A stretch of 64,000 nt of DNA from Sarea resinae (taxonomy: Eukaryota): NCBI GenBank assembly GCA_026026165.1, contig JAPEUD010000023.1, positions 186,001-250,000 of the forward strand, given 5' to 3'. How positions within the stretch are numbered: the first letter of the stretch is position 1; every line of letters begins with the position of its first letter. Under the pieces are notes generated by a model. That model saw only the letters and a list, made by a program, of their open reading frames with translations. It made no database searches and had not been told where the DNA came from. Of this stretch, positions 8,010 to 51,941 are shown in pieces. A program made the translations under genes and the position numbers.

Positions 8010-8028
8010 CTACTACCACCACCACCAC

Positions 8029-18982: not shown

Positions 18983-19040
18983 TCTACTCTGTACCATCTA
19001 CTCTGTACCATCTACTCTGTACCATCTACTCTGTACCATA
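18983..19040. repeat. About 4 tandem copies of ATCTACTCTGTACC near the edge of the AT-rich block
   Basis: Direct reading. Confidence 0.85.
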
Positions 19041-21279
19041 CTTGGTAGTAGGTCAGGGCTAGAGGAAGTAGGGTACCTGAAGTAGGAGGTAAGCTACCTT
19101 GGGAGGCAAAGGTAGAGTAAGGGACGCGGTACGGTAAAGGTAAGGTAAGGTAAGGTGAGTACCTCAGGGCTATCCATCAGCCTAAGGTACCTGACCTTAC
19201 CCACCAGTAGTCATGCACTGTGACATCGAGGGCTTGTCGGGTCCTCGGTCCTAGTGCCTCTAGTCCCCTTAGGTAGGTAGAGTACTGCAGTACTACAGTA
19301 CCCCTTAACTCTAGGATGTCAGGAACTTCGAGGCCTTTTTCAGTCGGGTTTGACGCTGTTTTTAGCGGCCAATGTCCTGTGGTAGTAACCAAATACTTAA
19401 GTAGTTTGTACCTAGTGACTTATTGTCCTTACCCTATACATATACTCACCCGCTGTTTTCTTGTTATCTGTCTCTCACTACTTAGATGCATAGGTCTAGC
19501 AGCAACAGAAAATAGAGACCTCTTATTACAACAGTCTCTTAGAACTGCCTATATAATCTAAAGGCAAAACTTAAGAAGATAAGTCAAGAAACTTTAAGAT
19601 AGCTATTAAGCGTTATAGTAGTAAGCAATAATACACACTTAAGCACTTAAGCTAAGAGCACTATTTGTACTACTATAAACAAGTTAAGAATAAGACTATA
19701 AAGAAATTGCACTTGCTTTTAACTAACAATTATATTTGTGCGCTAAAGCAGAAATAAACAAGGTAAGCTATTTCTTTTAATCTATATACATAATTAATAA
19801 AAGTTATAAATACTGCAAATTTATAAGATTTAACTAGCTTAACTATCTTATATATACTTATAAAGAGGATTTTATAATCTTCTTAGAATAAGACCTTAAT
19901 ATATATACACACTTAAGGAAAAAAAGCACTTTATACTTAGACTAGAAACTACTAAGTATATTATACTACAAATGCACTAGTTACAGAATTAATAAAATAA
20001 TTATAAAAGCTATCTTAAATATATACTTAGGCTATCTACTTAGGTTTAGGTACTTAGCCTAAATTAAGGTTTAAGTAAGTTAGCCTGCCTAATTATATAA
20101 TTAGGTTAGGTTTAGGTAGGCTTAATTAGCTGTAGAGCCTATAGCCTACCTATTAGGTATATACAAGTTGATTAATAAGATAAGAAGTAGATTAATAAGA
20201 TAAGATTATTAAAAGGTAATATATAGAGGTAATATCTAGAGAGTAAATGCAATAAAACTATAGGAATTATAGAATAAGAATTATAGTATAATAATACACT
20301 CTATATATTTAGTTTATAGTGTCCTACATAATCTACACTATATAAAAACCACTAAATCATTCTCTAAACCTTTATAATATAGTATGTTTTACTAGAACTA
20401 ATTCTACTCTAATAAAGATAAATATATGCTGTAGCATATACAAAGCAAACTACTATAAGTGTAACTATTCACACAATTAAGAAAGAAATAGACTAGTTCT
20501 AAAAGAGAGCCTCTATACCTTTAACCTAACAAATAAATTATCTATAGTTAAACGCAGGCGCTTTCTTTAAGACAATATAGATTAAGCGTTGTTATACCTA
20601 GAGTGTTAAAGCAAAGACTGCTGCTATAAAGCAGGTTTATCTAGCTGCACTATAGATAGAGGTAGAAGTAGTAAAGAGTGCTTATTATTAGAAAACCTAT
20701 ATAGGTCTGTGTTATCCTATATTGTAGGCCTACTATTAACTAAGGTTAGCTTATTATTATTACTAATAACAAGTAAATAATTATTAAATTCAGCTAATAG
20801 CGTGTGTAGAGTGTTATAGTAGGCCTAGGTACCTATAGGTAACCTAATTAGGCTGTAGGTATACCTACCTGCTTATATAATTAGGCGGGCCTATAGGTAG
20901 GCTTAATTAGTAGTAGGACCTATTACTTACCTAGTAGGTTATAGCAAGTTAATCTAATAAGATAATAGGTAAATCTAATAAGATAACAGAATATTCAATT
21001 AATAAGCTAATAGAATAATACATATCCTTTAGATAGTAAAGGTAGGTAATATATTAAGGTAATATTTTATAGAGAGAAAGTGAAATATTATGTACTTAAG
21101 TATTAATTTACATGTGATCTAGAAGACTAAGATAGAACTAATTGCAATAAGCTTTTTCGCTTTGCTCTTACTCTTTTAAACAAATTATTAATAGCTAGCC
21201 TCTTCTATCTTATTTGTTAGCTTAAGTTAGATGCGTTTAACAGTGAATTAGAGTAGGAAGGTATAGTTTAAGAGATAAT

Positions 21280-23930
21280 AGAGAGAGAGAGAGGTAAAGT
21301 TTACTTATCTCTTAAAAAGCTATATAAGTCATTAGATTCTATTCTCTAATTACTAAGATCTTACTCTTTAGTGTCACTAATAGTTAAAGAAGAGTCTTTA
21401 AGATTAATAAGCATTGTATAATTAACCTTATTAGTGCTCTTAAGAGCATTATTAGAGACTGTATTGCAACCCTTAGCACTAAGCTAATAACAATTAAAAT
21501 GCTTCACTATTATAACGTTCTAAATAGTTTCTACAACTAAATAGTTCCTCTAAAATATAATTAGATCTTATGCCTTATTAAAGGTCTGTTCTACTCTAAC
21601 AACAGCACTTAGAATTGCTAGAATGTCTTTTACTATTTGTTATAAGCACAGTTAATAGTAGGATCGCTAAAACTATTACTTATTAGTATTGTATATAATA
21701 AGTAGAACATATTACTAAAAAGTGTTACCTAGAGTAGATCTTTATAATCTAAGGAAAGAGATCTTAAGTATTAACTAATAGAGTCTTTTATTATTAGATT
21801 CTAGTTCTAAAGAACTTTAGCCCTTACTAGATCATTAATATTAAGAATAGATAAGGTAGCTTAAGCTGCAGTTAAAGTAACTACCTCCTTTGTCTTATAG
21901 TTTTACTAGTAGTAGTCTTTAAACTCCTACTAATATTGTTAAAGATAAGACGTCCTCTAATTATCTGACTAAATTATATAGGTTAGAATATCTCTAGAAT
22001 TGTACTAAAGACAGGCTGCAACTTACTTTATAGAGGTTAAGCTGTGTAGCAGGGTCTAGAATACATGCTATATTAAAGATAGTTCTATATAGTCCTTTAG
22101 TATTCTAATAGTATTGCAAGAGCTTAGCTTTTACAGCTTAAATAGTAGAAGTAAGCTCTTTTTTCTAGGGAATCTGTTTTAGCTAAAGCTTTTAAAAATG
22201 TAGCTTAAGATGCTTAAAGAGCTGCAAATAGATAAACTATGTCTTATAGATAGTAACACCTTTTGTATAAGAAACAGCGCGAGTCTAGTTATTAAATAGT
22301 TTTAGTAGGATAAGTAGGTAGCGCACTTAATCCTAACCTGTAGCTAATACCCTAGCATAGCAGATTGTACTTTTATATTTGTTAATAAGGAACGTCTAAA
22401 TAGAGTCCTTTAGTCTCTAGGCACGCGCTAGCATGTTATAAGTTAAGTTCTATTAAGTCTTTACATCTTAGATTATGTTTATAGGATTAGCCTAATGCTC
22501 TTAAAAGCGTGTAGATCGCTATAAGAATGCTGCTATATAAACAGCAATAGTCTAGATCTAGAAACATTAGTAGTTATATATAAAGAGATATAACGCACAA
22601 ACCTTTTAAAGTGTGCTGTTAAATAAATCTTTAAGAGAGAGGCTAGTTAGTGCCTTATAATCTTTATTAGACTAGGTGTCTTAGATTAACTTATTAGATA
22701 CAGTGATTTTTAATGCTTTATTAAAAGCAACTACTGCAAGCTGTATAACATAGGCTATACATAGCATATAAGCGACATTATAATTCTAGAATATTTAGTG
22801 TCTTATCTCTAAGAGTATAGCAAGTTCCTTCCTTATAGTGTTGTTATTACTAGTATTATCTGTTGTAATTGCAAGCACTTAGTCCTATATAAAATGTTAC
22901 CTAAAGGTGTTACTAAATGTAAACAGACTTACCTAGATATTAAAGCACTTTAATCGCTTAAGTAGAAGCTTAGCTATGTTTTTCCTAGTGTGCTTACTAC
23001 TAAGGCGCTTAAAGCTAAGTAAAACCTCTTAATAGGTCTAGTCCTTATTAATAAAGTATCCTATAATTAAAAGGAATAATATCCTATTTAGGCTCTGCTA
23101 AGTATTAAAGGCAATAGAGATCTTTGTTTTTAGCTCTAGCTTTTCTAGAATTAGAGGCACAATCTCTATATAGCGATTGTATATCTTGTTATGTATCTAT
23201 TGCTGACTAGGTATCTTAAGGTCTAGCCGACAAATTTTAAAGGACTGCTAAAGCTAATAATTCTTAACAATCCTCTATAGTAGATTTACAGAGATAATTA
23301 TCTTTAGCAAGATACTCTTCTATCTGTTAGTTAAGAAAGGCTCGCTTACTAAGGCAGAGTTTTATAGTTGTGTAGTTCTCTAGAGATAAATTAATATAAA
23401 TGTTACTAGAATGTGTTACTAGAGGAACTCACCTTAGCCTATAGTAAATCAAGCCTTTACAACAAATTTAATAGAGTAACTTTCTAACAATTAACAGATC
23501 TATAGTGCCTTTTTATAGCAGATATACCTAGGCCTTTTACACTTAGATAGCTAAGTCGCTTAGTATAGCTCTTACATACAATTCCTAGTAGGCTAGACTT
23601 AATATCTGCGACCTATAAGAAGTAGGACTATGCTTTACTAGTCTAAGTCTTAGAGCTCTACTAAGGGTTTCTACAGTTCTTAGTTCTTCTATAATCTGTG
23701 GTTTTCTACTAAGAATTAAAGTTATTCTTATAGAAACTTTGCTAGATAATGCAGTGGTTTAAAGAGTTGTGTTAAAGAGAGGAAAGAGGTTGTTAGGTTA
23801 GGTATAAGATAGTTGTAGTAGAGTTAGAGTTAGAGAATGTAGAGAGTTTAGTGCTAGTAAACGACTTATTACAATTAGAAGAAATATCTGTAGAGATAGT
23901 AAGGATTTTAAAGGACCTTAAGTTTAACAT
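21280..23930 (-). pseudogene. hAT transposase of element B (RIP-inactivated, with introns)
   Basis: Back-read motifs ISIAF(D)T(W)QS, AITTDN(A)SNN, C(M)A(H)VIQLAV, II(Q)DVKT(RW)N(S)TY and the dimerization motif DILAI(P)SAVV(G)VE.TF. Confidence 0.88.
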
Positions 23931-24199
23931 GCTAAAGTGAAATAAGGTGCAGATTAGAACGTACAATCACTAAAAAAACCCTTAACATTGTTTAACTAGG
24001 AGTATATATATTGTTTTAAATCTATACACTAGAAAAAACCTAAGGGCAGAGAGGAATAAAGTAGATAGGTAAAAAAACAAGAAATTGTAAAGCGAGATTT
24101 AAAGGAATAGATTTGCATTTTAATCTCCTAATGTTACTAATTTATGTTACTAAGCATTCCTTAGAAAATAACTAGTATATAGGCTAAACTAAAACTATA

Positions 24200-26350
24200 A
24201 CTATAGCTAAGCACTATTTAGCTTAGAGCTTGCACTCTCTTTCTTTACTATAGCTAGAAGACCTATCTCTAGCAACATTTATAGTATCTCTCTCTACTAT
24301 ATTGCTAGGATGCTCTAGAGCTACTGCATCCTATTCCTTTATACTCTTCTAGCTAGCTAAATTAAGAGAGGAATGCTCTAGGACTACTACCTCTTATTCT
24401 CTAGTGCTATCCTAGCTAGTTAGGTTAAGAGAGAAATGCTTAAGAATAGTTGCCTCTTATTCTCTAGTGCCTTTCTAAGTAGTTGAATTTAGAGAATTAA
24501 TCTCTACCTTCTCTTTAATATCCTTAAGCTCTTTTTAGTCTTTAGTAGTCTCTTTAATAAAGTTAATATTAGATTAAAAGGCTGTATTATCTTCTTTATT
24601 ATTAGAAATAACTACTTTAGTTTCCTCTATACTAATTGCAGCAAACTTATCCTCTTTATCTATGTCTATAAAATTAGAGAGTGTATTAGGATTGTCTATA
24701 TTTAAGAGAAATTCTATTATAGTTGCTGTTAGATTATTATCACTAGCAGCGATAAGGTTATTATAGCTATACTTATAGATATCTTATTTATAGCGTCTAA
24801 TAACCTTCTTTAATCGCTATCTAATGCGCTTACCCTAAGCTTTAAAAGATAGATCTAGTGAATTAGGCTTTTCTATATCTATAGGCTATAAACTTAGTTA
24901 GATCCTCTCTTTAATAATATAATATTACTAAAGAGTGTTACCTCTTCTTTAGTACCTTTCTTATCCTTCTTATTCTTTTCTAGTAAAAGAAGATTTACTA
25001 CATTAGTAATTATCTCTTTGTTCTTATTTGTATGTCTAGCTAATCTCTTTAAAGATAAGTTCTAGCGTGACTCAATCTATTTAGCTAACTAATAGTTAAA
25101 GAATCGACGTTCTATTAGCTTTGCTAATTTTAGTTCTATAATTTGCTTGTTAAAGGCTATATAAGTAGTAGAGTTAAGGCTTTTATAGCTAGATTCTTTG
25201 TGTAGCTTGTAGTAGAGCTTTGATTTTGCTACACAGTTAGCAGCATCTGCGCGCTTTACCTCTAACTTATAGGTATTGTTATTTAGAGCTAGAGCTGCTC
25301 TTTCTAACTTAGTTGCCTTGTCTTTAGCTTTCTTAAGCTATACTTTAGCTACCTTTTATTTAACACTATAAGGAATAACTCCTAGCTAAAGTTTAGGTGC
25401 AGTATAAGTGTAAGGAGATTTCTTAAGCCTTATAACAATGCTTAAGATCTAGGTATTACACTTAGCAGCTCTCTTAATAGTTGTATCTGCAGCTAATAAT
25501 CTAAGGACCTTATAACAGTGTAGTAGGATATCTTCTTCTTTAGATGCATTACTAGAGCTGCTGTATATAGTTAGTAAGTATCTAGAATAATAATGTTACT
25601 AAAATGTGTTACCTTTCCTAATTCTAAGGTATCTTTATAAGAGCCTTACAGCAGCGACTAAGAGTGATTTCTTTAAGTTTAGGAACCTTATAGCAGGTAG
25701 GAGTAGCGTTTCTAGTCTTAACAGCCTTGTAGTAGCAGCTAGAAGAGATTTCTTTAACAAGCAAATCACTAGAGCTAAATAAAGTAGTTAGCAAGTATCT
25801 AGAATTATAATGTTACTAAAAGGTGTTACCTTTCTTTACTCTAAGATTGTTAAGTAATAACTAGGCTGCTATTTGTCAGAGTATTCTAATTAGCAGATGC
25901 GTTACTAGAGCTTTAATCTAGTTAATAGGTATTTAAGACTATAAAGTTACTAAATTGTGTTACCTTTGCTCTTCTTTAGGCTGCTCTTTTAATAGAGGTG
26001 TAATCTCTTAGTATCTAGAAGAGTTAGAATTATCACTGCTATTAGAGCTTAACTTGCTATTATCTGCTCTAGTGACACTAGATTTATAGTCCTTAGAAGG
26101 ATTTATCTTATCTAGCTTTTATTGTTTGCTTTAAAGTAATAAGTTAGTTATTAGAATACTAAAATACTACTAGAAGGTGTTACCTTATTATATTAGGTAT
26201 TAGGCTAAGTTCTTTAAAGCCTTTCTTTAGTATTTTTATTGAAATATTTAATAGTTCTAGCTAGCTTCTCTTACCTCTTATTCCTATTACCTTCTCTACT
26301 CTCTTTATTAGAGGCTGTATTATAGGGCAAATCTATCTTAATATTAGAGT
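24200..26350 (-). pseudogene. Unknown multi-intron accessory ORF of hAT B
   Basis: Short GT..AG introns; peptides AKLIERRFFNY and A(W)GKRIR.RLK match those of the equivalent region in element A. Confidence 0.55.
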
Positions 26351-26372
26351 AAGATTTAGCTATAGTAGCAAG

Positions 26373-26510
26373 GTAAAAGGTCTTAATACTAATAAAAAGG
26401 TCTTAATATTAATAAAAAGGTCTTAAAACTAATAAAAAGGTCTTAAAACTAATAAAAAGGTTCTGAATAAGATAAAAGAGTCTTAGAAGTAATAAAAGAG
26501 TCTTAAAGTT
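26373..26510. repeat. 20-bp tandem repeat (TAATAAAAAGGTCTTAAAAC-like, about 6 copies)
   Basis: Direct reading; lies between the accessory ORF and the H3-like gene. Confidence 0.85.
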
Positions 26511-27645
26511 AATAATTAGGCTCTTAAAGCAGATAAGATAGTCCTAGCAATAATAGAAGTGCTTAAGAAGTAATAGAAACACTTAAAAATTAATAAAATA
26601 GGTTGATAACTAATAGAATTCCTTTAAAGTTAATAAAAAGCTAGGTTAGTAATAGTATATAGGTAGTTAGGTGCTGCTTCCTATCCTATTACTATAATAT
26701 ACAGCTTTATATTCACTGAAAAAGGTATGTACTTTCTTATTAACTAATCTTATTAACACCTTATATTTACCTTAACTAGTATATACTAACTGCATTAAAT
26801 GTGCCTAACTATAGAGTATATAGATTTCTACTACTTAGTTGCTTCTAACTTCCTACATCTTACAACTTAGTGTATATTAATGCTAATAAGGTGTAGCATT
26901 AAATTCTATTAGTTTTTAATAACTTTTTATTAATCCTTTGCTTATACTATCTAATTACTACTCTTATAGTAGTCTCTAGTGATTTGCAGACTCTCTACAC
27001 AACTTTTTAAAGTGAGGTAAGTTAAAGAAAACATTTTAATATATTCTCTATAGTAGCATAGATAGCTAATAGCCTTAGACAAAGAAAGAGGTTTATAAGA
27101 TACTACTCTCTTATTAAACTTAAAGTATATTAAGACAGACTCTACTACCTAGTAACACCTTTAGGTAACATTTGCTTTTAGAATGCCTTAAGCTTAGACT
27201 ATATTAGTAGCAGCCCTATTTTTTACTTTATACTCTAACATCTATTAGCATGCCTAAGACAGGTTAAAAAACAGCTTGTAAGACTATACCTACTTCTAAA
27301 ACTAGTTGCAAATCCACTAGCAAAAAGCTTATTGCAGCGCAAAGGAAAGTTATTACTAGTAGTAGTAATTAGGCTTGTAAGAACATTATAAGGCTAGGTT
27401 CTTATAAGAAGGCTAGTAGTAAGCGCTTTAACACTAGCACTTTTACCTATTGTATAGCAGAGTATAATAAAGCTATAACTATATAGAATAAAGAGAAGGC
27501 TAATACTACTATATATAGAGCAAATTTCACTAAGGTAAAGCTAGTCTATCTATTCTAAGCTAAGCCTAGCAGTAAGTCTCTCTATCTACTAGTAACACTT
27601 TAAGGTAATATTTTTAAAGCTAAAGCTTTATTAGAGATTTAGCGT

Positions 27646-28049
27646 TGTAGAGGAACAAAATAGACGCACTAAATCAGTGCTAAAGCAGAACACCTAGATA
27701 GTCCTAATAACTCCTTATGTAGTCGACAAGATAGCTATAACAACTACTTAACAACCTACTACTAAGGTATAATCAGTGGAATAGCACAAAGCAGAGGGAT
27801 TAGAAGGTGACTGCTCCTCTAGGAAGGAAGTAGTAGGAGAACTCTTAATTAATTGATTTAACTGAATAATAAAGAACTGCCCTGCGCTTAAAAGCTGCCT
27901 GAAAAACTAAACATAACTAAACTAACAAACTTCTCTAAATTTTGTTCCTTACCCCTTAACGTAACACTATCCTCCTTAAACTACATGCCCTAAGAACAAT
28001 GCACGTGATTTGCTGACTAATCCTAACCGAACTATTCTGACCTATAATA
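27646..28049 (-). repeat. 3' LTR
   Basis: Colinear with 39100-39503; followed on + by TCCTTCCCCTC (28050-28060), a polypurine tract on the minus strand. Confidence 0.95.
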
Positions 28050-28080
28050 TCCTTCCCCTCTACAAAGTGAAAGTTGCCTC

Positions 28081-31000: not shown

Positions 31001-31374
31001 AAATGTTCTACATTTTAGAAATTTACCCTATGAATTGTAAGCATCGACTGTGCAGTAGGTAGGAGAGGCTGCGCAACATTAGTAGGAGCAAGGGCAAGCT
31101 CTGCAGCTAGATTATTAGTTAGTTCTTCTTAGCCTTAGCTTTCTAAAGTCCTAGACTGTCCTAATGTTTCTAGAATAGACTCCTAGGTTTAAGAGGGCTC
31201 TTTAGGCTAAGCTTCTGCTACATTTGCTAGATCTTTAGCTATGTTAACATTATTATTGTTGTTTTGCAGTAAGAGAAGGTTAGGCGTAAGGAAAAGGCCT
31301 TAGCTGTCTAAATAAGAAGATATAGATTGCAGCGCAGGAGTAGATAGGATAATTGTGTCCTAGCTGTTAGACAT
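28081..31374 (-). pseudogene. Extra ORF of the Gypsy (about 1,097 codons) with a PhyH-like 2OG-Fe(II) dioxygenase domain
   Basis: The ATG (31374), HLD (29491-29499), P(H)(G) (29185-29193) and TAA (28081) are all in one frame; context FFHLD(W)N...NIVQVAVSID.ED.NNC...GMH and RITMPTIP(HG). Confidence 0.7.
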
Positions 31375-38600: not shown

Positions 38601-38760
38601 CTTAAGAAGTCTCTCTCTCTGCACTCTGCTGTCGCTGTTTTTTTGTGTTGTTTTGTTAGGGGTACCTCTTTACCTTAGAGAGGTTCGCGTGAGAACTCTG
38701 CTTACTTGTTTGCTAATAACAGCAAAAAACTTGTCTAATCTATTAACGTTGCATTATGTC
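32650..38760 (-). pseudogene. Gypsy gag-pol relic
   Basis: gag PSP(G)SH..PYF (~38350); Zn-knuckle-like segment (~37450); protease ALLDS(G)A(E)IC (~36470); RT FL(DD)I.VKG (34946-34957); RNase H LAV(D).S..G(WG)AVL.Q (~34450); integrase HHCC (~33620-33750); no chromodomain seen. Confidence 0.9.
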
Positions 38761-39099
38761 GTTCAGCTTCTTGTTTAGTTATAGAGTTAAGTTCTACAAT
38801 AAGTCTAGGTTGTTGTGTAACTATTAGACTGTCTAGAAGTTCGCTAAGAGCGCAATCTCTAATCTAAATCTAAAGCACTCCTTCTCTAATTTACAGGGTC
38901 TCTAGCAGCCCTGTCTAAATAGCTTTAACTAATCTGATCTGTTTAGCAGTTAATAGTATTAATATCCTGTCTTCCTTACTAATATATCACTCTTTCTAAT
39001 TCAACGTGCTGTTTCAATCTATATTGTTATGCGCTTAGTAGCATTGCACTTAACTGCAAATCAAGTGGTTGCAGGTTTAAGCCCTATGTAGGTCACTAA

Positions 39100-39503
39100 T
39101 GTAGAGAGACAAAATAGACGCACTAAATCAGTGCTAAAGCAGAACACCTAGACAGTCCTAATAACTCCTTATGTAGTTGACAAGATAGCTATAACAACTA
39201 CTTAACAACCTACTACTAAGGCATAATTAGTGGAATAGTATAAAGCAAAGGGATTAGAAGGTGACTGCTCCTTTAGGAAGGAAGTAGTAGGAGAACTCTT
39301 AATTAATTGATTTAACTAAATAATAAAGAATTGCCCTGCGCTTAAAAGCTGCCTGAAAAACTAAACATAACTAAACTAACAAACTTCTCTAAATTTTGTT
39401 CCTCACTCTTTAACGTAACACTATCCTCCTTAAACCACATGCCCTAAGAACAATGCACGTGATTTGCTGACTAATCCTAACCAAACCATTCTAACCTATG
39501 ACA
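39100..39503 (-). repeat. 5' LTR
   Basis: TGTAG...TGACA ends; differences from the other LTR, where compared by eye, are C/T or G/A transitions; a PBS-like T(G>A)GTGACC lies immediately inside. Confidence 0.95.
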
Positions 39504-40259
39504 GTGTATCTAAAAGAATGTAGATCTTCTGCTTATAAAGCTGCCTTTCTAGCGTCTTATAAGAGAGATTGCTTAAGATATCTAAAATACTAATAACACT
39601 CTTTACTTCTAATCCTTTACTATTAGTGCCCTTTAAGAAGCTGCTAAAGCTTACCTTATAGGCCTTTTTAAAAGTAAGTACAGCTCTTATTATTACCTTT
39701 CTATACTAACTCTAAAAGATATTTAGTATACTGCTATCTACTATAACTAGGTTACTATTAGCAGTAAAGACATGCAATTTATTAAGTCTCTTATAAAGAG
39801 ATAGAACCTTCTTATTAGCGATAACTAGTTAATACTAGCTTCTATACTATATAGGCTTTTCCTTTTAGATTTAGGTTTAGGGTCTAGGTTTAGGCTTACT
39901 AGGCATTCTTTAAGGGGTGCACTAATTAATCTTAGCTTTTACAATAACAATAAAGCTATATATCTAATAAGTAACACCTTTTAGCACTATTTACACTGTG
40001 CTCTTAATTTAGTGCTCTTTTATAGTAACACCTTTAGGTAATATAAACCTTCTCTTTAACACTTTAGCAACTATATACTACAGCATAGAATAATTACTAT
40101 TTTAGTATCTTATAAGTTATATAGTAGGTAACCTAACCTAACCTAGGTATACCTACTAGGCAGGTTCATTAGGTTATAGGTACCTAATACCTACTAGTAG
40201 GTAGGTAGAGAGTGCTTAACCTGCCTATAACCTAGCCTAGTTAACAGCCTAAGCGTGTG

Positions 40260-42745
40260 TTAATAATTAGTGTCCTTAGAAATACTATTAGATTTATCTT
40301 TACCTATATAGAAGCAGAGTTTATCGCAATTAAAGTGCTTTACAACTATAGTGTTCTAAACTGTTTCTACTAAAAGGCGACTTTAATAAAAGGTAATAAG
40401 GTCTTATACCTTATTAAAAGTCTGTTTAACACTAATAGCAGCTTTAGGTATAGTAAGAATGTCTTTTGCTATTTGTTTAAGCAAGAGCTAGTAGTGTGAT
40501 CGCTAGAACTAGTAGAATATCAGCACCTATATATAGAAATATTACTTAAAAGTGTTACCTACAAAGGATCCTTATAATCTATAGCTAGCAAAGATAGATA
40601 CTAACTAACTAGATCTATAATAGAGCGATGTTGTTTCTAAAGCGTCTTAGCCTATACAAGTGAATTAATATCTAATGCTAATATAAAGAGTGTAGCAATA
40701 TCTAAAGAGGCAACTTTAGTTCTTATATAATGCAACTAATAATAGTCCTTAAATTCGCGCTAGTACTTTTATAAATATTTATAGCCCTAGTTATTAGACT
40801 TCTTAGCTATTAGCAAAACATTCCTAGAGGATAAGGTAAAGGTAATAGATTTAGATAATATACTTTATATAGATTAAGCCTTATTAAAGGATTAAAGATA
40901 CATGCTAAATTAAACATTCTCTCTTATACTCTTTTAGTATCTTAGTAGTACTTAAAGAGCTTAGTCTTTGCTGCTTCTATAGCAGAAGTAAGCTCTTGTT
41001 TCTAAGGTGTCTGCTTAGGCTATATCTTGTTTAGATGCTTCTCTAAGTGCTTAAAAATCTAAGAGTATATAAACTAGGTCTTATAGATAGTTACGCCTTT
41101 AGTCTAAGACACAGCTCTTATCTAATTATTAAATAGCTTTAGTAAGACAATTAGATAGCAAATATAGTCCTAACTAGTAAGAGAGACATAAGTTCTACGT
41201 ATAGTAGGACTAGTTTTACTAATAAGAAATATCTAAAGAGTATCTTATAGCTGCTAGGCTTGCTTTAGCATATTATATATTAAGTTCTATTAAGTTTTAA
41301 CATCTTAGATTATATTAACTAGCGTTAGCTGCAGATTATAAAAGCGCGTAGTTTGCTATAATAAAGTAGCAATATAGATAGCAAGTGTATAAATCTAGAA
41401 ACTTTAGAGGTAGTAATAGATAAGGGTTGTTAGCACTTACCTTTTACAACGTGCTGCTAAAAGAGTCTTTAGAAAGAAGCTGCTAAAGCAGCTCTTAGTT
41501 TGTATCTAACTATGTATCTTATATAGACTTGTTTAAAGCAGTAATTTTTAGGCACTTATTAAAAGCCATAACTGTAAGCTAAATGATATACATAAGGCAA
41601 GGTATATAAGTAACCTTATAATCCTATACAATCTAATAGTGATTAGCAAGTAGACTTATTAGCTCTTAACGCATTATGTTGTTATTACTTGCGTTATCTG
41701 TTATCACAACTAGTATACAATCCTACAATGTAATGTTACCTAAAAGCATTACTATAAACATTAAAGACAAACCTAAATGTTAGAACACTAAAGTCAATTA
41801 AGTAGTAACATAGCTATGTTACAACTAGAGTGCTCTTTAGTTATCTTTTTAAACTCTAAGAGGACTTCCTAGTAATTCTAGTCTTTGTCAATAAAATACC
41901 CTATTATAGAAAGAAAGGATATCTTATTTAGACTCTACTATATATCTAGTGCGATAGAAATTTTAGTTTCTAGGCCTAGTCTCTGTAGAATCCTTAGTAA
42001 GATCTTTGTATATTGATTATAAATGTTATTATAAACCTATTATCGCCTTAGAATTCAAAGGCCTAGCTAGTAAAGGAGGAAGCATTGTTTAAACTAGTAG
42101 TTTTCTATAATCTGCTATAGAAGATTTGCTAATAGAATTATCTTAAGGAAGAGGTGTTACTAGCTTAACTAAGAGAATAGCTCTAAGGTTTAGAGAGTCT
42201 TTAGTGCTAAAGTATGTTGCTAGCATTAAGGATAGAGGTATTAGTTAAAAGATCTATTATATATAGCAATATCTTACTATAGTCTAAAGAGCCTTAAGTG
42301 TGTGTATTGTGCCTGCTATAAGAGACTAAGCACACTCTAGAGAGCTATAGTGCTGTTTTATTGCAGAAGTGCCTATCTCTTTAAGACTAGGATGCTCTTG
42401 CTAACGTCTGCATTATTAATACATTACTCTTAGGCAGCTAGTTATAACATTAGCAACTTAGTAGAAGAGAGACTAGGTTGTGCTTTTCTACGTCCTAGAA
42501 TCCTATTAAGGGCTTCTATATTAACCTATATCTGTATAAGCAGTCTGCTACTACTAGAAGATAAAAGTATTATAATATAATTGCTGCTAGATAACTATTC
42601 GCTATGTAGGATCTCTTTGTAACACCTCTAGAACATAGTAAATTAAAGCTAAAGTAATAGTTGTAGGTTTAGACTTAATAGCTATAGACCTTTATATACT
42701 ATCTCTAAGTTCCTTATAGTCTAATGTTTCAAACGAATTAGACAT
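40260..42745 (-). pseudogene. hAT transposase of element A (its C-terminal tail continues at ~20500-20798)
   Basis: ISIALDI(W).S, VITDNASNN, CL.(H)II.LTV, DVKT(RW)N and KDIL.IP.AA..V..TF; introns at the same positions as in the B transposase. Confidence 0.85.
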
Positions 42746-43049
42746 TGTAAAGGAGAAATTTACAGCGATAAGAAAGTGTAGAAGGCCTTAGAATGTATAG
42801 CAGAGTGAAGAGGTAGAAAGTGCCTTTAACTAGAGAAGTATTTGCTTAAATATTAATATTAAAGGTTGCTAGGTTTAGCATAACTAAATAAACACAGCAG
42901 AGAGACTATAAAGAGAGTAATATAATACAGCTATCTACTAGAGTTATTAGGAGAGAGTTTATACAGCTAAAATTTAATTAAGAGAATATGCATTCCTAAC
43001 GTGATTAATATACACAATGTTACTAGTAAGTGTTACTTTTTTAGTAAAC

Positions 43050-45050
43050 TAAATTCTAGAGAAAAAGTGAAAATCTACCCCTAGGCAGACACAGACTAAT
43101 AAAGAAAAGCCACTTAGCTATAACTACCTCTCTACTTATTGCTATCCTTAGCAGCACTAGAACTAGAGTCCTTCTCTTTAGCATTATTAGTAGAGTTATT
43201 CTTACTCTCCTTTGTATTAATAGGAATATTCTTAGCTATTGTTAGCAGAGCCTTCTCTATAGCAGATCTAGTAATAGCAGGGTCCTCTCTTTTAAGAATG
43301 TCCTCTAGCTAAGTTTTCTCTCCTATAGTTAGCAGTATAAAGTCTTCCTTATCACTTAAGATTAGGTTAATATCCTTATTAGATAATAGAAACACTTCTG
43401 CTTCTAAATTGCTAAACCTAGTAAAATTAGTCCTAGCCTCTGTGTCACTATTAGAGAGAGTTGTATAGTCTTTAACCTGCTCTATAAACTCTAATATTAC
43501 CTCCTTTAGATTAAGATCACTAGCTTCTACTAGATTATTATAGCTATAGCAGTAGATATCTCTCTTATAGTAGCAGACTACTTTTAGCAAGCGACTTCTA
43601 ATGCGTTTGCCCTATACTCTAAATAACAAGTTAGGCTTATTTAAATTTTATCTCTGCTAAACTAATTAGACAAATGCTGTAAAGAAACGTTACTTAAAAG
43701 TGTTACCTTAGGATTAGCACTACTATTAGGTTAGCTATCTCTATTGTCTTTAAGTAGTAAGATATTAACAATATCCTTAACTATCTGCTTATTATCCTTA
43801 GCCTTTGCTTTCTCTACCTTAATAGCCTTTTACTGCTATATAGTAACCTACTTAGTAGACTAGTAGAGGAAAAAGCGTTGTTCTATTAATTTGTCTATTT
43901 TAGAGTCTATAACAGTCTCTTTAAAGTCTTATTGTTATGCTGTTATTATACTAGCGTAATTATTCTTGCGATAGAGTTTACCTCTTAGAGTAGATTTTGC
44001 TTTCCTATCTGCTCTATCTGCTTTTTTTAGTGTCTTCTTAAACTTAGTATTGCTAAGTTTACTATCTAGCTCTAACTCTAATGCTTTAGACTTTGCTTCC
44101 TTAAGCTGCGCTCTAGCAATCTGTTGTTATTTGCTGTAGAGAACTATCCTAAGCCTTATCTTACTAGTATAATGTCTTTATAGGCAGGCTTTCACACGTT
44201 CTACTAGGCTAGCTATCTCTAGGTTAAATATTCTCTTAGGATAAGAGGATGTTATAAGGGTTGCACTATAAGTTGCACTAATATTAGTTACTAGCAAACA
44301 ATGTTACCTAAATGTATTACCTTAGATATCTCTTTCTAAGAGCAAGAGAGTCTAAGCTCTCTAGCTTATTATTAAGGTTAGTCTCTTTCTACTTCTATCT
44401 CTTAGATATAGTCCTATTATATTATTAGCTTTATATTTAGAATTGTTACTAGGATGTGTTACTACTTCTGCTTCTTATATACCTTTCTTACTTTGTCTAA
44501 GAACTTTGCTTTTCTAACCTTATCTAAGAACTTTACCTTTATCTTTTTAACTATAAAGACTATCTTAACTTTATCGCTGCTACTATTACTAGAGTAGCAC
44601 TACTAGCAGATATTTACAGATATTGTTACCTAAATGCGTTACCTAGCCTTACTATCTATCTTCTTATTACTACTTCCTTTCTAACTGCTGCTACTATATA
44701 GAGAATTACTTATAGCCCTATTATTAAGATCTATAGGCAGTTAATTATTGTCTTTATATTCTTCTATCTCTAGATTTAGCTTAGTTATGCTAGATTTTGC
44801 TTTCTTAAGCTTTTATTGTTTCTTACACTAATATAAGCCTTCTATAGTATTATTATTACCTTAATATATTACCCTTAGACCTAAGCTGCTAGTAGGCTAT
44901 AGTTTTTAAGAAGAAGTTAGTTTCACCTTACTCTATCTCACTTAGAAGTTTAAAACTTACCTCTTCTTTATAATACTAGTATTCTCTATAGCTGCCTTAT
45001 TCTAAAAGAAGCTTATAGGTGATATAAGTAATTTAGAGAGTAATTAGCCA
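43050..45050 (-). pseudogene. Unknown multi-intron accessory ORF of hAT A
   Basis: DKLIEQRFFLY and V(W)GKRIRSRLLK, similar to the B accessory ORF; several short introns. Confidence 0.55.
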
Positions 45051-45249
45051 CCTATCTTATGACTTTCTACTGCCTAAACAGTTAAGAAAGTTAATAGGAT
45101 TAATAAAATTAATAAAATCTTAATGATATTAATAATAGAAGTAATAGAGTTGATAAAAAATAGCACTTCTCTTTATATAGAAGAAAGTTGCTAATAATAT
45201 AGGTAGTAAGGTTGAATTATATAGTAGAACTAGGCATATAAGATTTAAG

Positions 45250-45400
45250 CAGAAGGTATATACCTTATTAAACAGTTAATAACATTTACTGCAAGGTACA
45301 TACCTTATTAATTAGTTAATAACATTTACTACAAGGTACATACCTTATTAACTAGCTAATAACACTAACTAAGGTATATACCTTGCAGTAAATGTTTACC
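45250..45400. repeat. About 41-bp tandem repeat (AAGGTA(C/T)ATACCTTATTAA...) in the divergent intergenic region
   Basis: Direct reading, 3-4 copies. Confidence 0.8.
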
Positions 45401-45850
45401 TTAATATTATATAGGTCTACTACTTAATTTAACCTTACTACCTACATTATTAGCAACCTTCTCCTATAGCAAGAGGATTGCTCTCTCTTATTAACTTTGT
45501 TACTTCTGTTATTAAACTAATAAGACTTAATAAACTTTATCACTTCTATTATTAGTATTATTAAGATTTCTCTCTTAGTGCTCTTTAAGTTTTAAGGTTA
45601 AGGTGAGTTTAAGAACTACTACTTAATAGTAACACATTTAGGTAACATTTAAGACTATAAAGGCACTTAGCTAATAATTCCTAACTACAGACAACTCTCT
45701 AGATTCTTTCTTTAATACTAACTAAAGATTCTCTTTTAGCACTCTCTACACTACACTCTTACTCTCTTAACATAATTATAGTCACTAATACATTAAGTTA
45801 TTCTTTCCTACCTCTACTAGTAACACTTAATAGTAACATTTTACTAGACA

Positions 45851-46600
45851 ATAGCTTGTACTAAGCGTACCGCCTGTAAGACTGTCTCTAGTACTAGTAG
45901 AAAAGGAAAAGGAAAAGGTAAGAGAATATCTGCTGCTAAGGCTTATTATATTACTAGTAGCAAATCCCTATGTAAGAACTTAGCTAGTATAGCAGCATAT
46001 AAAGGTTGTCTTGCTACTAGACAACGCTTTACTACTAGTATATATGCTAAACGCTAAAAGGCCTATAAAGATGCTATAAAAGCATAGGTTTATAAGGATA
46101 CTACCTTTTATAGTTGTAGTAAGGTTTATAGTGTGCCTAAACTAATCTAACTCTATTGCACTTATCTAGGTAGTAAGTCTTAGTCTCTAAACTCTAAGAG
46201 TAACACATTATAGTAACATTTAAACACTATAGCATCTGCACTCTATAAAATTAAGAGATTGTAAAAATCTATTAATTTAGTCATTCTAAAGCTCTCTTTC
46301 TAGCGCCTAGTCTGCAAGGTTATATCTTATTACTACTACCTCTCTAGAGAGCTCTATTTTTAGTTATTAGCTATATATGCCTTGTAAGAAGCTACTAAGG
46401 CTTTTATAGTTAGGTTCTTTAAAAGTGAGTTTTTCTATCTCTTCTTCTATCCTATACTTAATTTTTCTAGATGTGCTTTAGGCCTGTATTTATTAGAACT
46501 ATATAACTATTAATTATAAAGACACTTAGTTTATTAAGGCTTTAATAAAGGGCTTTAGTATCTAGATCTCTAGTAACATATAGGTTAAGTTTCTATAGCA
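45851..46600 (+). pseudogene. Histone H3-like gene of hAT A
   Basis: (M)A(R)TKRTA(R)KT...T(GG)KS(PR)KNLAS.AA(R)K; ASAL(RE)IKRL(Q)KS..LVI(P)KL.F(Q)RLV(RE)V; AL(Q)EA.(E)AF.V.FF(E); two short introns. Confidence 0.88.
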
Positions 46601-48423
46601 TTAGCTCTAAGGTTTTACTAGTTCTAGTAGCGCAATTAGAGATGCAATTAGAGATGCAGTTAGAGATGCAATTAGGGCTTTTCTAGTCTTCTAGTCACAG
46701 GTTATAGGAAGTTATAAGAGGCTTATAGTTTTTCTCTGCCTTTTAGCATTTTTAGTCTTTACTTTACTTAGTCTACAATAAAGACTTAATAGACTTAGTA
46801 ATATATATAGGTAATATTTGTAGAGTAATAGCAGCTTTTTAATGCTCTATAAAACATGCCCTACAATCTATACTATTTTAGCTACTATCTTTATATCATG
46901 TGATAGGTACCTACACCTACCTACTAGGTCTTATTAGGCAGGTTAATTAGGGTATAGGTACTTAATACCTATACCTAGGCAGGTTCTTCTACCCTTACCC
47001 GCCTAGTAGGTACCTAAGTAGACACTCTAAGCTTATTATCTATAACAAAACCTAAGTCTTTTTCTTCTAGGTAGCTCTTTAATTTATCTAATAAGAGTAT
47101 AATCTCTAGTTGTTTATTAGAGTCTATAATAGTGTTAGTATTAGTGTCTTTAGTCTAAGACAGTGTCTTAGGATTGTTAGCGTTGCAAAGGAAATTTTCT
47201 ATTAATTTAAGTAGATTAGAGTCGCTAGCTTTAACTAGATCATTGTATCTAAAGTAGTAGATTTCCTATTTATTGCAACAAACTACACAACTTAATTATT
47301 GCTTAATATCTTTTTTTATAGAAGCTAGGCCTTTCTAGTAATTAATAACAATTAAGTCGTTCTATATCTAAGTTAGCATGCAAAATAAGGATCTGCATTG
47401 TTACTAAAATGTGTTACCTTATCTTCTTTACTTTCTTAAGTGTCTTTATTTAATACATCTACTTACTCTTTATCTTAGGATTCTTAACTAACTAGTCTTT
47501 AAGCCCTTAACTCTTGCTTTGCCTTTGCTTTCTCTTCTAACTTAGCTTTATTCTTCTTATACTCTCTCTTCTGCACAGCCTCTTTATTGTAAGCAAGCTT
47601 CTTAAAGTATTTAGCAGACTTTCTACTTGTAAATTGCTTTTTTATTAAATGTATTAGTGCTAGCTTAATTACCTTGTCATTAAACTATGCTTTCTCTTCT
47701 GTAGTTATATTATAAGACTTTATATCTTTCTTTAGTTTTGCTTAAAGCTTTAACTTAGCTGACTAGTTAGCTCTATCTTTTTTAGTGTATATAGATTGCT
47801 AGTTTTCTTTGTTATTCACTTTAGTTTTAGCTTTTTTATTAGACTAGAGCTTATAATACATAGTGTTAGTCGCTCTAATAACTTCTAAACTGCTATAATT
47901 TAGTATAGAACGTTACTACAATGTGTTACTTACTTGCTTAAGACTAATAATTGTTTGTCCTTAGACCTTAACTGCTTATCTAATGCTATAAATATATTGA
48001 CCCTATAAGATATAAGTACTTCGCTAGAATAAGTGTAGTATTAAGTACTAACACTAAGATTTTAGAACTTGCTTTAAAGCTTAAGATATTGCTTAAGTTA
48101 CTAGACTTCTCTTTAGCTTTAATATTCTAGTATTTAGCTGCTAGTAAAGTCTTAGTCGCTTTAGAAATAGTGTCTAGAACTAGACTTTACTATCTTTTAA
48201 CTCGCTTTATTAAATGTGCTATACTAGTAAAGTTAGTCTTAGGCGCTAATTAAAGTGATATTACTAATAAGTGTTACTTTGCTTAGCTTATACACTTAAG
48301 TAGAGTTAGAGAGCGTAGACTAGTTATCTTCTTAGCTTCTTACTTTATAGATTAAAGTAAAGCTTACTGCTTGTTATAAGTTCTGTCTATCTTAAGATAC
48401 AAGCTAGTTACAGCTAGATAATT

Positions 48424-48645
48424 AAAAGTTAAAGTGTTAGTTGCATTTATATCTTTATCTGTAACTTAGTATATTAACTTATAATTCTTATTAGAATAAA
48501 GACTAATTTAGTATATAAGTATAAAGATAAAGAAGTAGCTAAAGAGTTAGAAGTTAAAAGTGTTAGTTGCATTTATATCTTTATTTGTAACTTAGTATAT
48601 TAACTTATAATTCTTATTAGAACAAAGACTAATTAAGTATATAAG
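48424..48645. repeat. Two-copy tandem duplication of about 127 bp
   Basis: AAGTT(A)AAAGTGTTAGTTGCATTTATATC... at ~48426 and ~48552. Confidence 0.85.
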
Positions 48646-49256
48646 TAAGTAAAGAAGAAGAAGAAAAAAAAGCTATAGTAAGAAGCAGCAGATAAGTATA
48701 TACTCTACTATACTAGTTTGCGCTAGCACTTGTAATGCTCTATTAATTAGTTTATTAATAAGTTATAAATAGCTTCTAGCAGCTAGTTCTATCTACATGC
48801 GTAAGAAGTTATATAGTTAACTTCTGCACTTACTAACAGCTTCTTTTCTTCTATACTTCTTTATTACACTAACTACTTAGCTAGTTTTAGTAAGTAAGAG
48901 TATATTAAGCAATATTTGTTAAATACAAGCATTAATAAGACTTACTAACTATACTAAACGTTTATAGGCTAGAGCGACTTCACTTTCTTCTTTAAATGTA
49001 AGTTCTCTCTAGTTTAAATTAAGCTTAAAGCAATAGAGTCACTAACTAAAGTAACAGTCTGTTTATTAAATTATCTATGTTAAAGTAAGTTAAGTGCTTT
49101 AAACTACAAGTAACACATTTAAGTAATGTATTGCTTAGATATCTAACCTGCTAGACTCTTCTTAATTCACTCTATATATATAGCGAATTAAGTTCACTAT
49201 ATTAAGACAGCTATCCTTAGCTTCTTACTAAGTATATATAGAGAACAATAATAAGA

Positions 49257-50086
49257 ATGCTCTCTCTTTACCTAACTACACTAGCTCTAAAGAAGTTAAA
49301 GAAGAACCTAATAGGTTAGTGTATCTTACTTTACTGCTGCACTTATATATTGCTTACTAAATTATCTAGCAGTAATAGTAGTAGAGAGAAGACTTAAAGC
49401 GCATGCACTTGCCTATAGACTGCTTGTAAAAGTCTAATTTAAACAGCCTGTAAGTCTACTAGTAGTAAGGTCCTTTATAAGAATCTACGCTCTAAAGCTG
49501 CTTGCACTAATAAAGCGTGTATATATAAAGTAGAAAGAGCTAGCTTTTTTTAATGTATAGCTAAGTATTGTACCTTAATTGCTGCCTAGAAGTAAGAGAA
49601 GACTATAGCAAAGCGAAATAAACAAGCCTTCTATAAAAGCAGACCACTCTAGCTGCGCTATAGGACTAGACTAAAAAGTGAGTAATACTTTACTCTTATA
49701 GTAACACATTTTAGTAACGCTTAGTAGTTGCTGCGCTTAAAGAGATCTATTGCTACTAGAAGAGAGCTAAATTATTGCTTTGCAAACTGCTTTTCTAGAG
49801 GATTGTTTATAAGATAGTATACAACTTTAGCTTAATTAAAGACGTGCGTTTTTAGGCAGCTGCTCTATATGCTGTGTAAGAAGCTGCTAAAGTGTTCTTA
49901 GTTAGTTTTTTTACAAGTAAGTTTGTAAAAATCAGCGCGCTTTAGTACTACTAACATATAGATAGACTTAAACTTAGCTGCAATCTATGCAAAGCGTATT
50001 ACTATCTAGGTAAAAGACTTGCAATTAATTACTAACTTTATAAAGCAGTTTAAATTAAGCTTTAGTTATAAGAGCAAGAAGAAGTA
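49257..50086 (+). pseudogene. Histone H3-like gene of unit C
   Basis: (Q)TA(R)KST(GG)KV(PR)KNLRSKAA(R); AALKEI..Y(Q)K..LLL(R)KL(P)F(Q)RIV; DVRF(Q)AAAL.AV(Q)EAA; LNLAAI(H)AKRITI(Q)VKDLQL. Start position approximate. Confidence 0.9.
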
Positions 50087-51877: not shown

Positions 51878-51941
51878 AGTGGCTGCGAGGGGGCGGACGG
51901 GCAGCGGAGGGGGCAGGCGGACGCGCGGCGGAGGGAGAGCT

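Follow-up and report, generated by a model that had tools for sequence, protein, structure and literature searches.

Three hAT units and their genes

We analyzed a stretch of 64,000 nucleotides of Sarea resinae DNA (GenBank assembly GCA_026026165.1, contig JAPEUD010000023.1, positions 186,001 to 250,000 of the forward strand), hereafter the window, in whose coordinates all positions are given. The window contains degraded hAT transposon units, and the introns of their genes repeatedly carry a short bipartite motif, GTAACAC-N6-GTAACA, which is the subject of this analysis. Comparison of the window with itself revealed three related units: (i) unit A, at about 20084-27645 and resuming at 39500; (ii) unit B, at 40095-46870; and (iii) unit C, which starts at 46871 and ends near 50307. 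Over the transposase region (1854 aligned columns), units A and B have an identity of 67.6%. The genes in each unit diverge from a central region that is rich in tandem and inverted repeats, with the transposase and an accessory (central) open reading frame (ORF) on the minus strand and a gene for a histone H3-like protein on the plus strand; unit C is without a transposase.

In unit A, the hAT transposase survives as a remnant at 21493-23310 (minus strand) that was degraded through RIP (repeat-induced point mutation). Residues 71-466 of the library protein P0001 align by tblastn at 23310-22027, and a dimerisation exon occupies 21639-21493. The remnant of unit B, also located by tblastn, spans 40329-41994 (minus strand), with its dimerisation exon at 40484-40329. 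A translation of 21952-23121 (minus strand) that was read through stop codons, written as X, matched 537 library proteins at E <= 0.001; the best match was P0001 (5e-31), which carries PF05699, the hAT C-terminal dimerisation domain. Membership in hAT is thus supported by transposase homology together with the C-terminal dimerisation domain. It should be noted that the transposase was detected by an exhaustive HMMER search, and that a six-frame Pfam search of the read-through translations recovered the histone domain only. Further homologue searches, with the transposase in a 'longer' search mode and with the N-terminal tail of the H3-like protein as query, returned nothing. No convincing terminal inverted repeats were found at the units, and target-site duplications could not be defined.

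The accessory ORF is represented in all three units on the minus strand, and its reference is P0151, a hypothetical protein of 307 amino acids from a public assembly. In unit A (24517-25448), residues 1-116 and 149-253 of P0151 align with a frame difference of 2; in unit B (43180-44216), residues 1-148 and 149-292 align at 70-75% identity; in unit C, a fragment remains (47083-47313; residues 150-227, E 4e-4). Between the unit B ORF and P0151, 80 of the 292 aligned codons differ, and C>T or G>A changes can account for all 80 differences, as compared to 8% for a random codon. Because every codon difference is of the RIP type, unit B represents a RIP-mutated copy of a family that has an intact member, and an intact, possibly active copy of the family therefore exists in the public assembly.

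The H3-like gene of unit B occupies 45848-46424 (plus strand) and, by alignment to unit C, consists of an N-tail exon, an intron with the motif, and a histone-fold exon. The stop-free ORF at 45848-46057 resembles the H3 tail, as judged by eye. In unit C, the histone-fold exon (49727-49915, plus strand) matches Pfam PF00125 with E 5.4e-9, and a C-terminal exon from about 49962 gives a weak match to the same family (E 0.13). In unit A, the histone-fold exon (39511-39672, plus strand) reaches E 1.1e-4 and 22.8 bits, short of the gathering score (26.4). In unit C, the gene ends with an intron at 49917-49961 (plus strand) that has a canonical TACTAAC sequence and is followed by the C-terminal histone exon; the paralogues of this last intron lie at 39674-39718 in unit A and 46425-46470 in unit B. 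In all three units, this intron sits after the LF(E/K) position of the histone fold.

The histone-fold exon of unit A is parted from the 5' part of its gene by a nested element bounded by long terminal repeats (LTRs) at 27646-39499, with 400-bp direct repeats at 27646-28045 and 39100-39499 that are 95% identical. Its insertion point lies 26 nt past the motif-bearing intron of the unit A H3-like gene. The nested element retains no ORF of at least 110 amino acids, and its seven ORFs of at least 70 amino acids have no Pfam match; the label 'Gypsy' that it had received in the first-pass annotation is unconfirmed.

A paired motif with fixed spacing

Over the whole window, the exact pattern GTAACAC-N6-GTAACA has 11 matches versus 0.00 expected, and the relaxed pattern GTAAYRY-N6-GTAAYR, whose matches we call strict copies, has 29 matches versus 0.09 expected, with a largest count of 1 among the shuffles. 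Because the region is AT-rich, we also made a control with the composition of the elements themselves (first-order Markov, 300 simulations). For the 18,545 bp of element DNA, the simulations averaged 0.037 matches and never had more than 1, compared to the 29 copies observed. When the gap between the two halves was varied from 0 to 30, 29 matches were found at gap 6, a single match at each of gaps 7, 12, 20, 25, 28 and 29, and none at the other 24 gaps. A position-weight scan added four credible degenerate copies (25945, 26165, 39971 and 50084), for a total of 33, from which a weak match at 40842 (13 bits) was left out. The first-pass annotation, which had reported more than 25 copies with an invariant period of 13 bp, was accurate in this respect: all 28 of the positions that it gave were found, 27 of them as strict copies and one, 25945, with a single mismatch (second half GTAACT). 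Five copies are new, i.e., 24132 and 44854 (strict) and 26165, 39971 and 50084 (degenerate).

Taken together, the 29 strict copies give the profile W R G T A A C A C N T T W W R G T A A Y A T T. The spacer had been described as variable; it is in fact conserved, NTTTWR, with T at position 8 in 27/29 copies and T at position 9 in 22/29. The bases around each GTAAC are also constrained (R on the 5' side, AC or AT(T) on the 3' side), so that the motif is 21-23 nt long and can be described as a WRGTAACAY direct repeat with a 13-nt period and a T-rich link. For the copy at 20214-20246, Tandem Repeats Finder (TRF) reported a period of 13 and 2.5 copies; arrays with three full 13-nt units were not found among the motif copies. 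Lone GTAAC[AG] half-sites number about 10 in the elements, versus 33 pairs, and their density equals the background of host DNA and control repeats, which indicates that the pair is the functional unit. Variants with C-to-T changes, such as GTAATAT, are the expected RIP products of GTAACAC. A pre-RIP form TGGTAAC was considered and rejected, given that the 12 copies preceded by TA include no unmutated TG. An origin of the copies as hAT excision footprints or target-site duplications was also rejected, as one and the same sequence at 33 sites does not fit it. A likeness to binding sites of transcription factors (forkhead, Yap, Myb) was considered and dropped.

All strict copies fall within 20216-49719 and inside the three related hAT units (20.0-27.6 kb and 39.5-50.4 kb), where unit A has 11, unit B 13 and unit C 5. 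No copies were found in 22.6 kb of host DNA (1-19000 and 50400-54000), nor in 21.9 kb of other RIP-mutated DNA, which comprises the nested LTR-bounded element (11,854 bp) and the AT-rich segment 54000-64000. The TpA/ApT ratio is 1.77-1.93 in the three units and in both control stretches, versus 0.69 in the host DNA. The segment 54000-64000, used here as a motif-free control, is a heavily RIP-type AT-rich block with a GC content of 0.27-0.36 and TpA/ApT of 1.90. The absence of the motif from host genes and from the nested element, as originally noted, is therefore borne out, and two observations that would have counted against a specific motif, equal frequency in unrelated RIP-mutated DNA and unconstrained spacing, were not made: the nested element and 54000-64000 hold no copies, and each gap from 0 to 30 other than 6 has at most one match.

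Beyond the window, a metagenome scan for GTAACACNTTTWRGTAACATT returned 11 loci with one match each in unrelated contexts, four of which were one repeated sequence and one a leucine-rich-repeat-like array. A scan of viral contigs for the motif yielded two single matches, and P0151 had no match among the viral contigs. In an index of sequencing runs, one DNA run contained 0.69 of the sampled words, two other runs of that study contained next to none, and no RNA run was listed. The Rfam search of the window assigned no family. Our literature searches on GTAACA/GUAACA introns, splicing, fungi, and intronic motifs of hAT transposases found no description of the motif among the papers listed, which is weak evidence that it is unpublished.

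Placement of the motif in introns

To all 33 copies we applied one rule, whether AG directly precedes the motif or not. Among the 13 AG-preceded copies, counted over all units, 8 have CTRAY 8-30 nt downstream followed by YAG (background at random element positions 0.097; binomial 6e-6), and none (0/13) has an upstream GTRAGT. In the remaining 20, a strict GTRAGT stands 5-36 nt upstream of the motif in 7 (background 0.017; 3e-8), and 4/20 have the downstream CTRAY and YAG. The following two layouts can be distinguished: (i) the motif opens the intron, at +1 or +5, with a normal CTAAC branch site and a 3' splice site downstream (about 12 introns of 50-62 nt); (ii) a normal GTRAGT donor is followed after 7-21 nt by the motif and after another 5-21 nt by the 3' splice site (about 12 introns of 47-60 nt), which puts the second GTAAC 7-23 nt before the 3' end of the intron, i.e., in the branch-site position. 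Overall, the introns are 47-62 nt long and are in sense orientation with the motif. The claim that orientation follows the gene holds in this sense for the introns; it is, however, inseparable from outward pointing, since the genes diverge from the center of each unit, and the argument from orientation is weaker for it. A recursive splice site or twin intron, with TTTAG|GTAAC in the center of the motif, was considered and rejected, as the introns are only 47-62 nt long and the nested piece would be 13-14 nt.

Three motif introns have been confirmed through protein homology, namely transposase intron 2 of unit B, the accessory-gene intron and transposase intron 3. The transposase introns were thus defined in part by homology. 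Intron 2 carries the motif in the branch-site position, at 22895-22913 in unit A (intron 22885-22932, 48 nt) and at 41734-41752 in unit B (intron 41723-41772, 50 nt), both on the minus strand. In unit A, the P0001 alignment is gapped across the intron, and the two GTAAC are its only branch-site-like sequences. In unit B, matches to the protein P0003 stop at 41812 and resume at 41722 with a frame shift of 2, and the 13 unaligned P0003 residues fill 41811-41773 exactly, which leaves an intron of 50 nt. Intron 3 has the motif at its 5' end, at 21710-21728 in unit A and 40540-40558 in unit B (minus strand), and the exon downstream of it encodes the hAT dimerisation domain; in unit A, this exon runs from 21666 into the dimerisation match. 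In unit B, a GTAGGT donor 4 nt upstream of the motif gives an in-frame intron of 60 nt with the motif at +5. Intron 1 of unit A (23380-23432) carries the motif in the branch-site position at 23401-23419 (minus strand), as identified by pattern scan and splice-signal context.

In the accessory gene, the match to P0151 residues 1-148 and the match beginning at residue 149 are in frames 2 apart in both unit A and unit B, so that an intron is required there, and the motif lies inside this interval, at the 5' end of the intron and on the minus strand: 24923-24941 in unit A (intron 24886-24941, 56 nt) and 43688-43706 in unit B (intron 43657-43706, 50 nt). The copy at 47399-47417 in unit C (intron 47362-47417) has the exact pattern and is placed by the P0151 alignment. 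The frame is regained when the motif intron (50 nt in B, 56 nt in A) is taken out. In the public gene model, P0151 lacks the equivalent of a 161-nt stretch that comprises this 50-nt intron and 37 codons in frame. The interval separating the accessory ORF from the transposase contains one further minus-strand copy in unit A (24132-24150; strict, with no clear donor) and one in unit B (43018-43036; exact pattern).

Motif introns are also located upstream of start codons; the accessory ORF is preceded by three or four of them and the H3-like ORF by two. In unit A, upstream introns of the accessory ORF carry the motif at their 5' ends, on the minus strand, at 25594-25612 (intron 25561-25612; CTAAC 19 nt past the motif), 25811-25829 (intron 25775-25829; exact pattern and context), and in degenerate form at 25945-25963 and 26165-26183 (22.8 and 23.5 bits in the position-weight scan). 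In unit B, 5'-end copies identified by pattern scan and context lie at 44302-44320 (intron 44266-44320) and 44624-44642, and a copy inside an upstream intron lies at 44444-44462, with a GTATAT donor 20 nt upstream (all minus strand). In unit C, the minus-strand copy at 48259-48277 opens an upstream intron with GACTAAC and TACTAG downstream, and the one at 47911-47929 (pattern scan and context) overlaps a GTAAGT donor that starts 4 nt upstream of it. In three similar upstream introns of unit A (window position 25900, minus strand, and its neighbors), the exon after the 3' splice site begins CTCTAGTAAYGC, which gives a third GTAAC-type half-site 7 nt past the intron.

The H3-like gene carries its copies on the plus strand. 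Upstream intron 1 has the motif in the branch-site position in all units: 27152-27170 in unit A (donor GTATAT), 45629-45647 in unit B (exact pattern, alignment to unit C) and 49110-49128 in unit C (intron 49085-49138; pattern scan and alignment). Upstream intron 2 of unit B contains the motif at 45820-45838 and ends just before the H3-tail ORF. The coding intron has the motif in the branch-site position at 27592-27610 in unit A (intron 27572-27619; pattern scan and context), at 46200-46218 in unit B (intron 46173-46232; exact pattern, alignment to unit C) and at 49701-49719 in unit C (intron 49678-49724), where the histone-fold exon comes next.

The remaining copies lie outside recognizable introns, including those at 20216, 21046, 40025 and 46798 that the first-pass annotation had called subterminal. 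Two plus-strand copies of the GTAATAT form are found outside recognized genes near the left edge of unit A, at 20216-20234 (pattern scan; TRF period 13) and 21046-21064 (pattern scan), and another copy of this form, on the minus strand, is in the central region of unit B (44854-44872; strict pattern). Downstream of the H3-like genes, all on the plus strand, there are two copies in unit A within 39971-40043 (pattern and position-weight scans; 39971 degenerate, 40025 strict), one in unit B at 46798-46816 (pattern scan), and a degenerate one in unit C at 50084-50102 (position-weight scan, 19.0 bits).

As a reference, 20 candidate host introns in the window have CTRAY-type branch sites, and none of them has GTAAC as its branch site; GTAAC as the usual branch site of the host is thereby ruled out.

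Interpretation of the intronic pair

The persistence of the motif was assessed by comparing the units with one another. Upstream of the accessory start codon, blastn and tblastx comparisons among units A, B and C detect motif copies only, each of which matches every other. In 13 syntenic pairs, the 23-nt motif window is 82% identical, whereas the 30-nt flanks (gapped) are 62% and 56% identical, as compared to 55% for random 30-mers of the elements. In all synteny checks but one (transposase intron 1), a motif present at a given intron of one unit is kept at the same intron of the other. Because RIP makes transitions only, the randomization of the flanks is not due to RIP, and the motif has outlasted real divergence. 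The persistence of the motif between randomized flanks fits selection on a cis element. Folding of 14 introns (47-60 nt) yielded Z-scores from -2.55 to +2.13, with 1 of the 14 below -2; there was no common structure, and the motif was mostly unpaired, which fits a linear recognition site.

Our tentative interpretation, to which we assign a probability of about 0.45, is that the motif acts as a conserved intronic RNA element that resembles a branch site plus a 5' splice site and would be read as a whole by a trans-acting factor linking the splicing of all element transcripts. The RNA element would be about 21 nt long and would consist of two tandem R-GUAAC-A-Y halves 13 nt apart with a U-rich spacer, located in short spliceosomal introns of the transposase, the central ORF and the H3-like gene. 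Each half would mimic both a branch site and an intron start, so that the motif could double as the intron's own splice signal: at +1 or +5 it would serve as the start of an intron with a normal CUAAC branch site downstream, and after a GURAGU donor, 7-23 nt before the 3' splice site, it would serve as the branch site. The ideal partner of the U2 branch-recognition sequence is UACUAACAC. UAGUAACAC matches UACUAACAC at 8/9 positions, with G in place of C. With AG in front of it, each half is also like the first four bases of a 5' splice site, and AG|GUAA can pair with 6 bases of U1. This dual likeness explains how the motif can replace either signal, but it does not account for the joint retention of the two halves, the gap and the spacer. 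One half would be enough for a splice signal, although both halves, their spacing and the spacer are kept, and from this we infer that the whole element is read by a trans-acting factor. Possible factors are a protein associated with the branch site or with U1/U2 and a regulator specific to the element; either would make the splicing of all element transcripts depend on one input. The first-pass annotation had proposed a cis-code recognized by an element-encoded or host factor, either for coordinated splicing control or as a DNA-binding array in introns; the specificity to the element, the strict spacing, the sense placement in introns and the persistence stand, whereas binding of a factor and coordinated control are what we infer from them; splice signals in a family of duplicated introns, or a DNA array, are the less probable alternatives considered below.

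Several observations weigh against this interpretation. Regarding the signal itself, GTAACA is a poor 5' splice site (C at +5) that departs from the GTRAGT consensus, and each half has G where the U2 partner expects C. Regarding the assignment of introns, 5/13 of the AG-preceded copies lack CTRAY and YAG, 13/20 of the others lack a strict donor, and, because the units are paralogous, the counts are not independent and correspond to roughly 12-14 distinct intron positions. The two positions proposed earlier for the motif, the 5' splice site itself (AG|GTAACAC) and the branch site, are both borne out as classes, but at transposase intron 3 the AG|GT junction gives 56 nt (unit B) or 62 nt (unit A), neither divisible by 3, and breaks the frame. 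For the accessory gene, the public P0151 gene model joins residues 148/149, which corresponds to a 161-nt intron in unit B and not to the 50-nt motif intron; both keep the frame, and the motif is intronic in either. Not all introns carry the motif: the last H3-like intron has a canonical donor and a TACTAAC-type branch site and is without the motif in all three units, and transposase intron 1 of unit B has lost it. At the place of the second GTAACA of unit A, the unit B intron reads CTAATA, which a C>T (RIP-type) change would make of a normal CTAACA branch site. Splicing in this family therefore does not require the motif. In addition, 6-8 copies lie outside recognizable introns (20216, 21046, 44854, 46798, 39971/40025, 50084), and those at 20216 and 21046 are on the strand opposite to the neighboring minus-strand gene. 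The identity among copies is partly circular, as the copies were gathered by motif search, and only the synteny comparison escapes this. Finally, P0151 belongs to no Pfam family and has no recognizable RNA- or DNA-binding domain; a structure-Atlas search for look-alikes of P0151 gave none that was usable (predicted template modeling score, pTM, of the Atlas model 0.24).

Regulons of this general kind are known. The Mer1-dependent meiotic introns of budding yeast form a regulon defined by an intronic splicing enhancer, and the third intron of the Drosophila P element is controlled through a pseudo-5'-splice-site, so that a transposon gates its own splicing. As in these systems, a short conserved sequence is common to the introns of a gene set here and adjoins or overlaps weak splice signals. 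Unlike them, the motif, known here from sequence alone, is bipartite with fixed spacing and occurs in about 10-12 introns per unit across three genes, at the 5' end or the branch site. An intronic cis element common to a gene set would thus be of a known kind, and what would be particular here is that it is private to a transposon, bipartite, and doubles as a splice signal. Another likeness is to the Quaking response element, ACUAAY-N(1-20)-UAAY, a bipartite site of STAR proteins: both have two UAAY-type halves that resemble branch sites, but the spacing is fixed here. We know of no STAR-family dimer in these fungi.

Among the alternatives to a factor-read RNA element, the one that survives best, although we regard it as somewhat unlikely, is a private family of duplicated introns, similar to introner-like elements and limited to the element's own transcripts. 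One or two founders would have spread to about 10-12 positions per unit, and the motif would survive only as a splice signal, with no dedicated factor. Such a founder may have been a longer intron with the order GTRAGT-motif-CTAAC-YAG, which later lost sequence on one side or the other; in a few copies, e.g., 44444, a donor, the motif, CTAAT and YAG are all still present. In favor of this scenario, the neighboring introns with copies at 25594, 25811 and 25945 (25561-25963) are alike over their full length, at 83% and 63% over 81 nt, and the H3-like gene has a single canonical intron that lacks the motif next to several motif introns, of which two precede the start codon; this suggests the addition of motif introns to a gene that had been captured. 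According to the available portions of PMC3609843 and PMC4457414, fungi have introner-like elements whose copies decay to ordinary introns, which also counts for duplication. As in the introner-like elements of Dothideomycetes described in those portions, many introns here have a common sequence that was probably multiplied, with decay to ordinary introns; unlike those elements, the introns here have only 21 nt in common, are of ordinary length and lack stable folds, and the copies in the window are confined to transposon genes (PMC3609843, PMC4457414). The evidence against duplication comes mainly from what has been kept. Both halves, the 6-nt gap and the spacer are preserved in both positional classes, and lone halves are at background; beyond the motif, similarity among the introns does not exceed that of random sequence, and similarity over the full length of the intron, a trait of introner-like elements, is found only in the three adjacent introns at 25561-25963. 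The introns have an ordinary length of 47-62 nt without the stable folds reported for introner-like elements, and the host DNA of the window contains no motif. Introner-like elements are also characterized by hundreds of copies in unrelated host genes; the part of this that the window covers is 22.6 kb of host DNA with 0 copies. An origin by duplication is compatible, as history, with our preferred RNA element; it leaves the maintenance of the pair unexplained.

An unlikely alternative, in our view, is an array of DNA binding sites for a protein of the element, either the transposase with its BED finger or the product of the central ORF, or for a host factor. Such sites would be confined to introns and untranslated DNA since coding sequence cannot hold them, and would be written in sense so as to stay compatible with splicing. 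Dimeric DNA-binding proteins typically have sites that are direct repeats with a set spacing, the copies in every unit face away from the repeat-rich center, as end-directed sites would, and some of the 6-8 extra-intronic copies are about 70-220 bp from unit boundaries (20216, 21046, 40025, 46798 and 50084). However, the outermost left copies, 20216 and 21046, point inward and break this symmetry, no terminal inverted repeats could be defined, and the copies are spread over the whole 7-10 kb instead of being clustered near the ends. Moreover, at least 12 copies are exactly at, or 4 nt after, the exon-intron junction, and about 12 more lie 7-23 nt before the 3' splice site, a precision for which a DNA site would offer no reason. 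Known subterminal transposase-binding repeats, such as the AAACGG hexamers of Ac and the 12-bp motifs of En/Spm, are located within a few hundred bp of the ends, in both orientations. The copies here are like these repeats in that a short motif recurs within one element and is absent from the surrounding DNA, and unlike them in that they extend through the unit at spacings of 134-1185 bp, without clustering at the ends, and are precisely placed in introns.

Chance, low complexity or a RIP artefact, by which AT enrichment would pair GTAAYR-like words by accident, might be suspected given that the region is heavily RIP-mutated and that the GTAATAT variants are RIP products of GTAACAC, but it is excluded by the controls (0.037-0.09 expected versus 29 observed, 0 copies in 21.9 kb of equally RIP-mutated DNA, and enrichment at gap 6 alone).

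The carrier elements have published relatives. In the available excerpts of PMC3538342, Pyrenophora tritici-repentis has expressed hAT elements with a transposase, a central ORF and an H3-like gene, as well as a 2.3-kb form without the transposase, and in those of PMC6710886, Pseudocercospora fijiensis and its relatives have hAT-borne H3-like copies. The units in the window have the same gene content, in which an H3-like gene and an ORF of unknown function accompany the hAT transposase; unit C, which is shorter and without a transposase, resembles the 2.3-kb Pyrenophora form, and the copies are RIP-degraded and lie in AT-rich blocks, as in P. fijiensis (PMC6710886). Unlike the intron-less H3-like retrocopies of P. 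fijiensis (PMC6710886), the H3-like coding region of each of the three units is broken up by at least two introns, and the retention of an ordinary H3-like intron in three units conflicts with the intron-less retrocopy origin proposed, in the excerpted text, for P. fijiensis (PMC6710886). The excerpts of PMC3538342 and PMC6710886 contain no mention of the intronic motif; in PMC6710886, the word 'motif' was found 0 times, and the 7 occurrences of 'intron' do not concern a signal of this kind.

A more far-reaching form of the RNA-element interpretation, which we consider doubtful, is that this hAT/H3-like lineage has a splicing code of its own. The bipartite element, present in almost every intron of the three genes including the intron arrays of the 5' untranslated regions, would be read by a dedicated reader, possibly the domain-less central-ORF protein, and splicing and transposition would be licensed or blocked together. 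The same core may also let introns copy into newly captured genes, such as the H3-like gene. Fungal DNA transposons usually have few introns with generic signals, whereas each unit here has about 10-12 short introns, nearly all with the 21-nt element. If the motif is indeed read by a factor, it would be a compact natural case of a transposon that gates its own expression through splicing, and a cis tag for studying the recognition of very short fungal introns; if, on the other hand, the introns are a private duplicating family, they would provide a small system, open to dating, in which to study how a captured gene gains introns.

Apart from the motif, the units contain several other repeats. 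At the unit boundaries, there are palindrome-rich direct repeats of about 110-135 bp (20084-20213, 20864-20998, 40095-40206, 46871-46984 and 50308-50399), which fall into two types, each 76-79% identical within the type. The layout of the units looks like a tandem array rather than independent insertions. The central region of unit A has, at 26375-26528, 7.7 copies of the 20-mer AAAAGGTCTTAAAACTAATA, and that of unit B (45129-45515) has 3.4 copies of a 40-mer between 104-nt inverted arms that are 83% complementary; these central repeat arrays may be promoters or protein-binding arrays. Downstream of the accessory ORF of unit A, a 63-mer is present in about 2-3 copies (24310-24495), and unit C includes 1.9 copies of a 126-mer with 92% matches (48422-48663).

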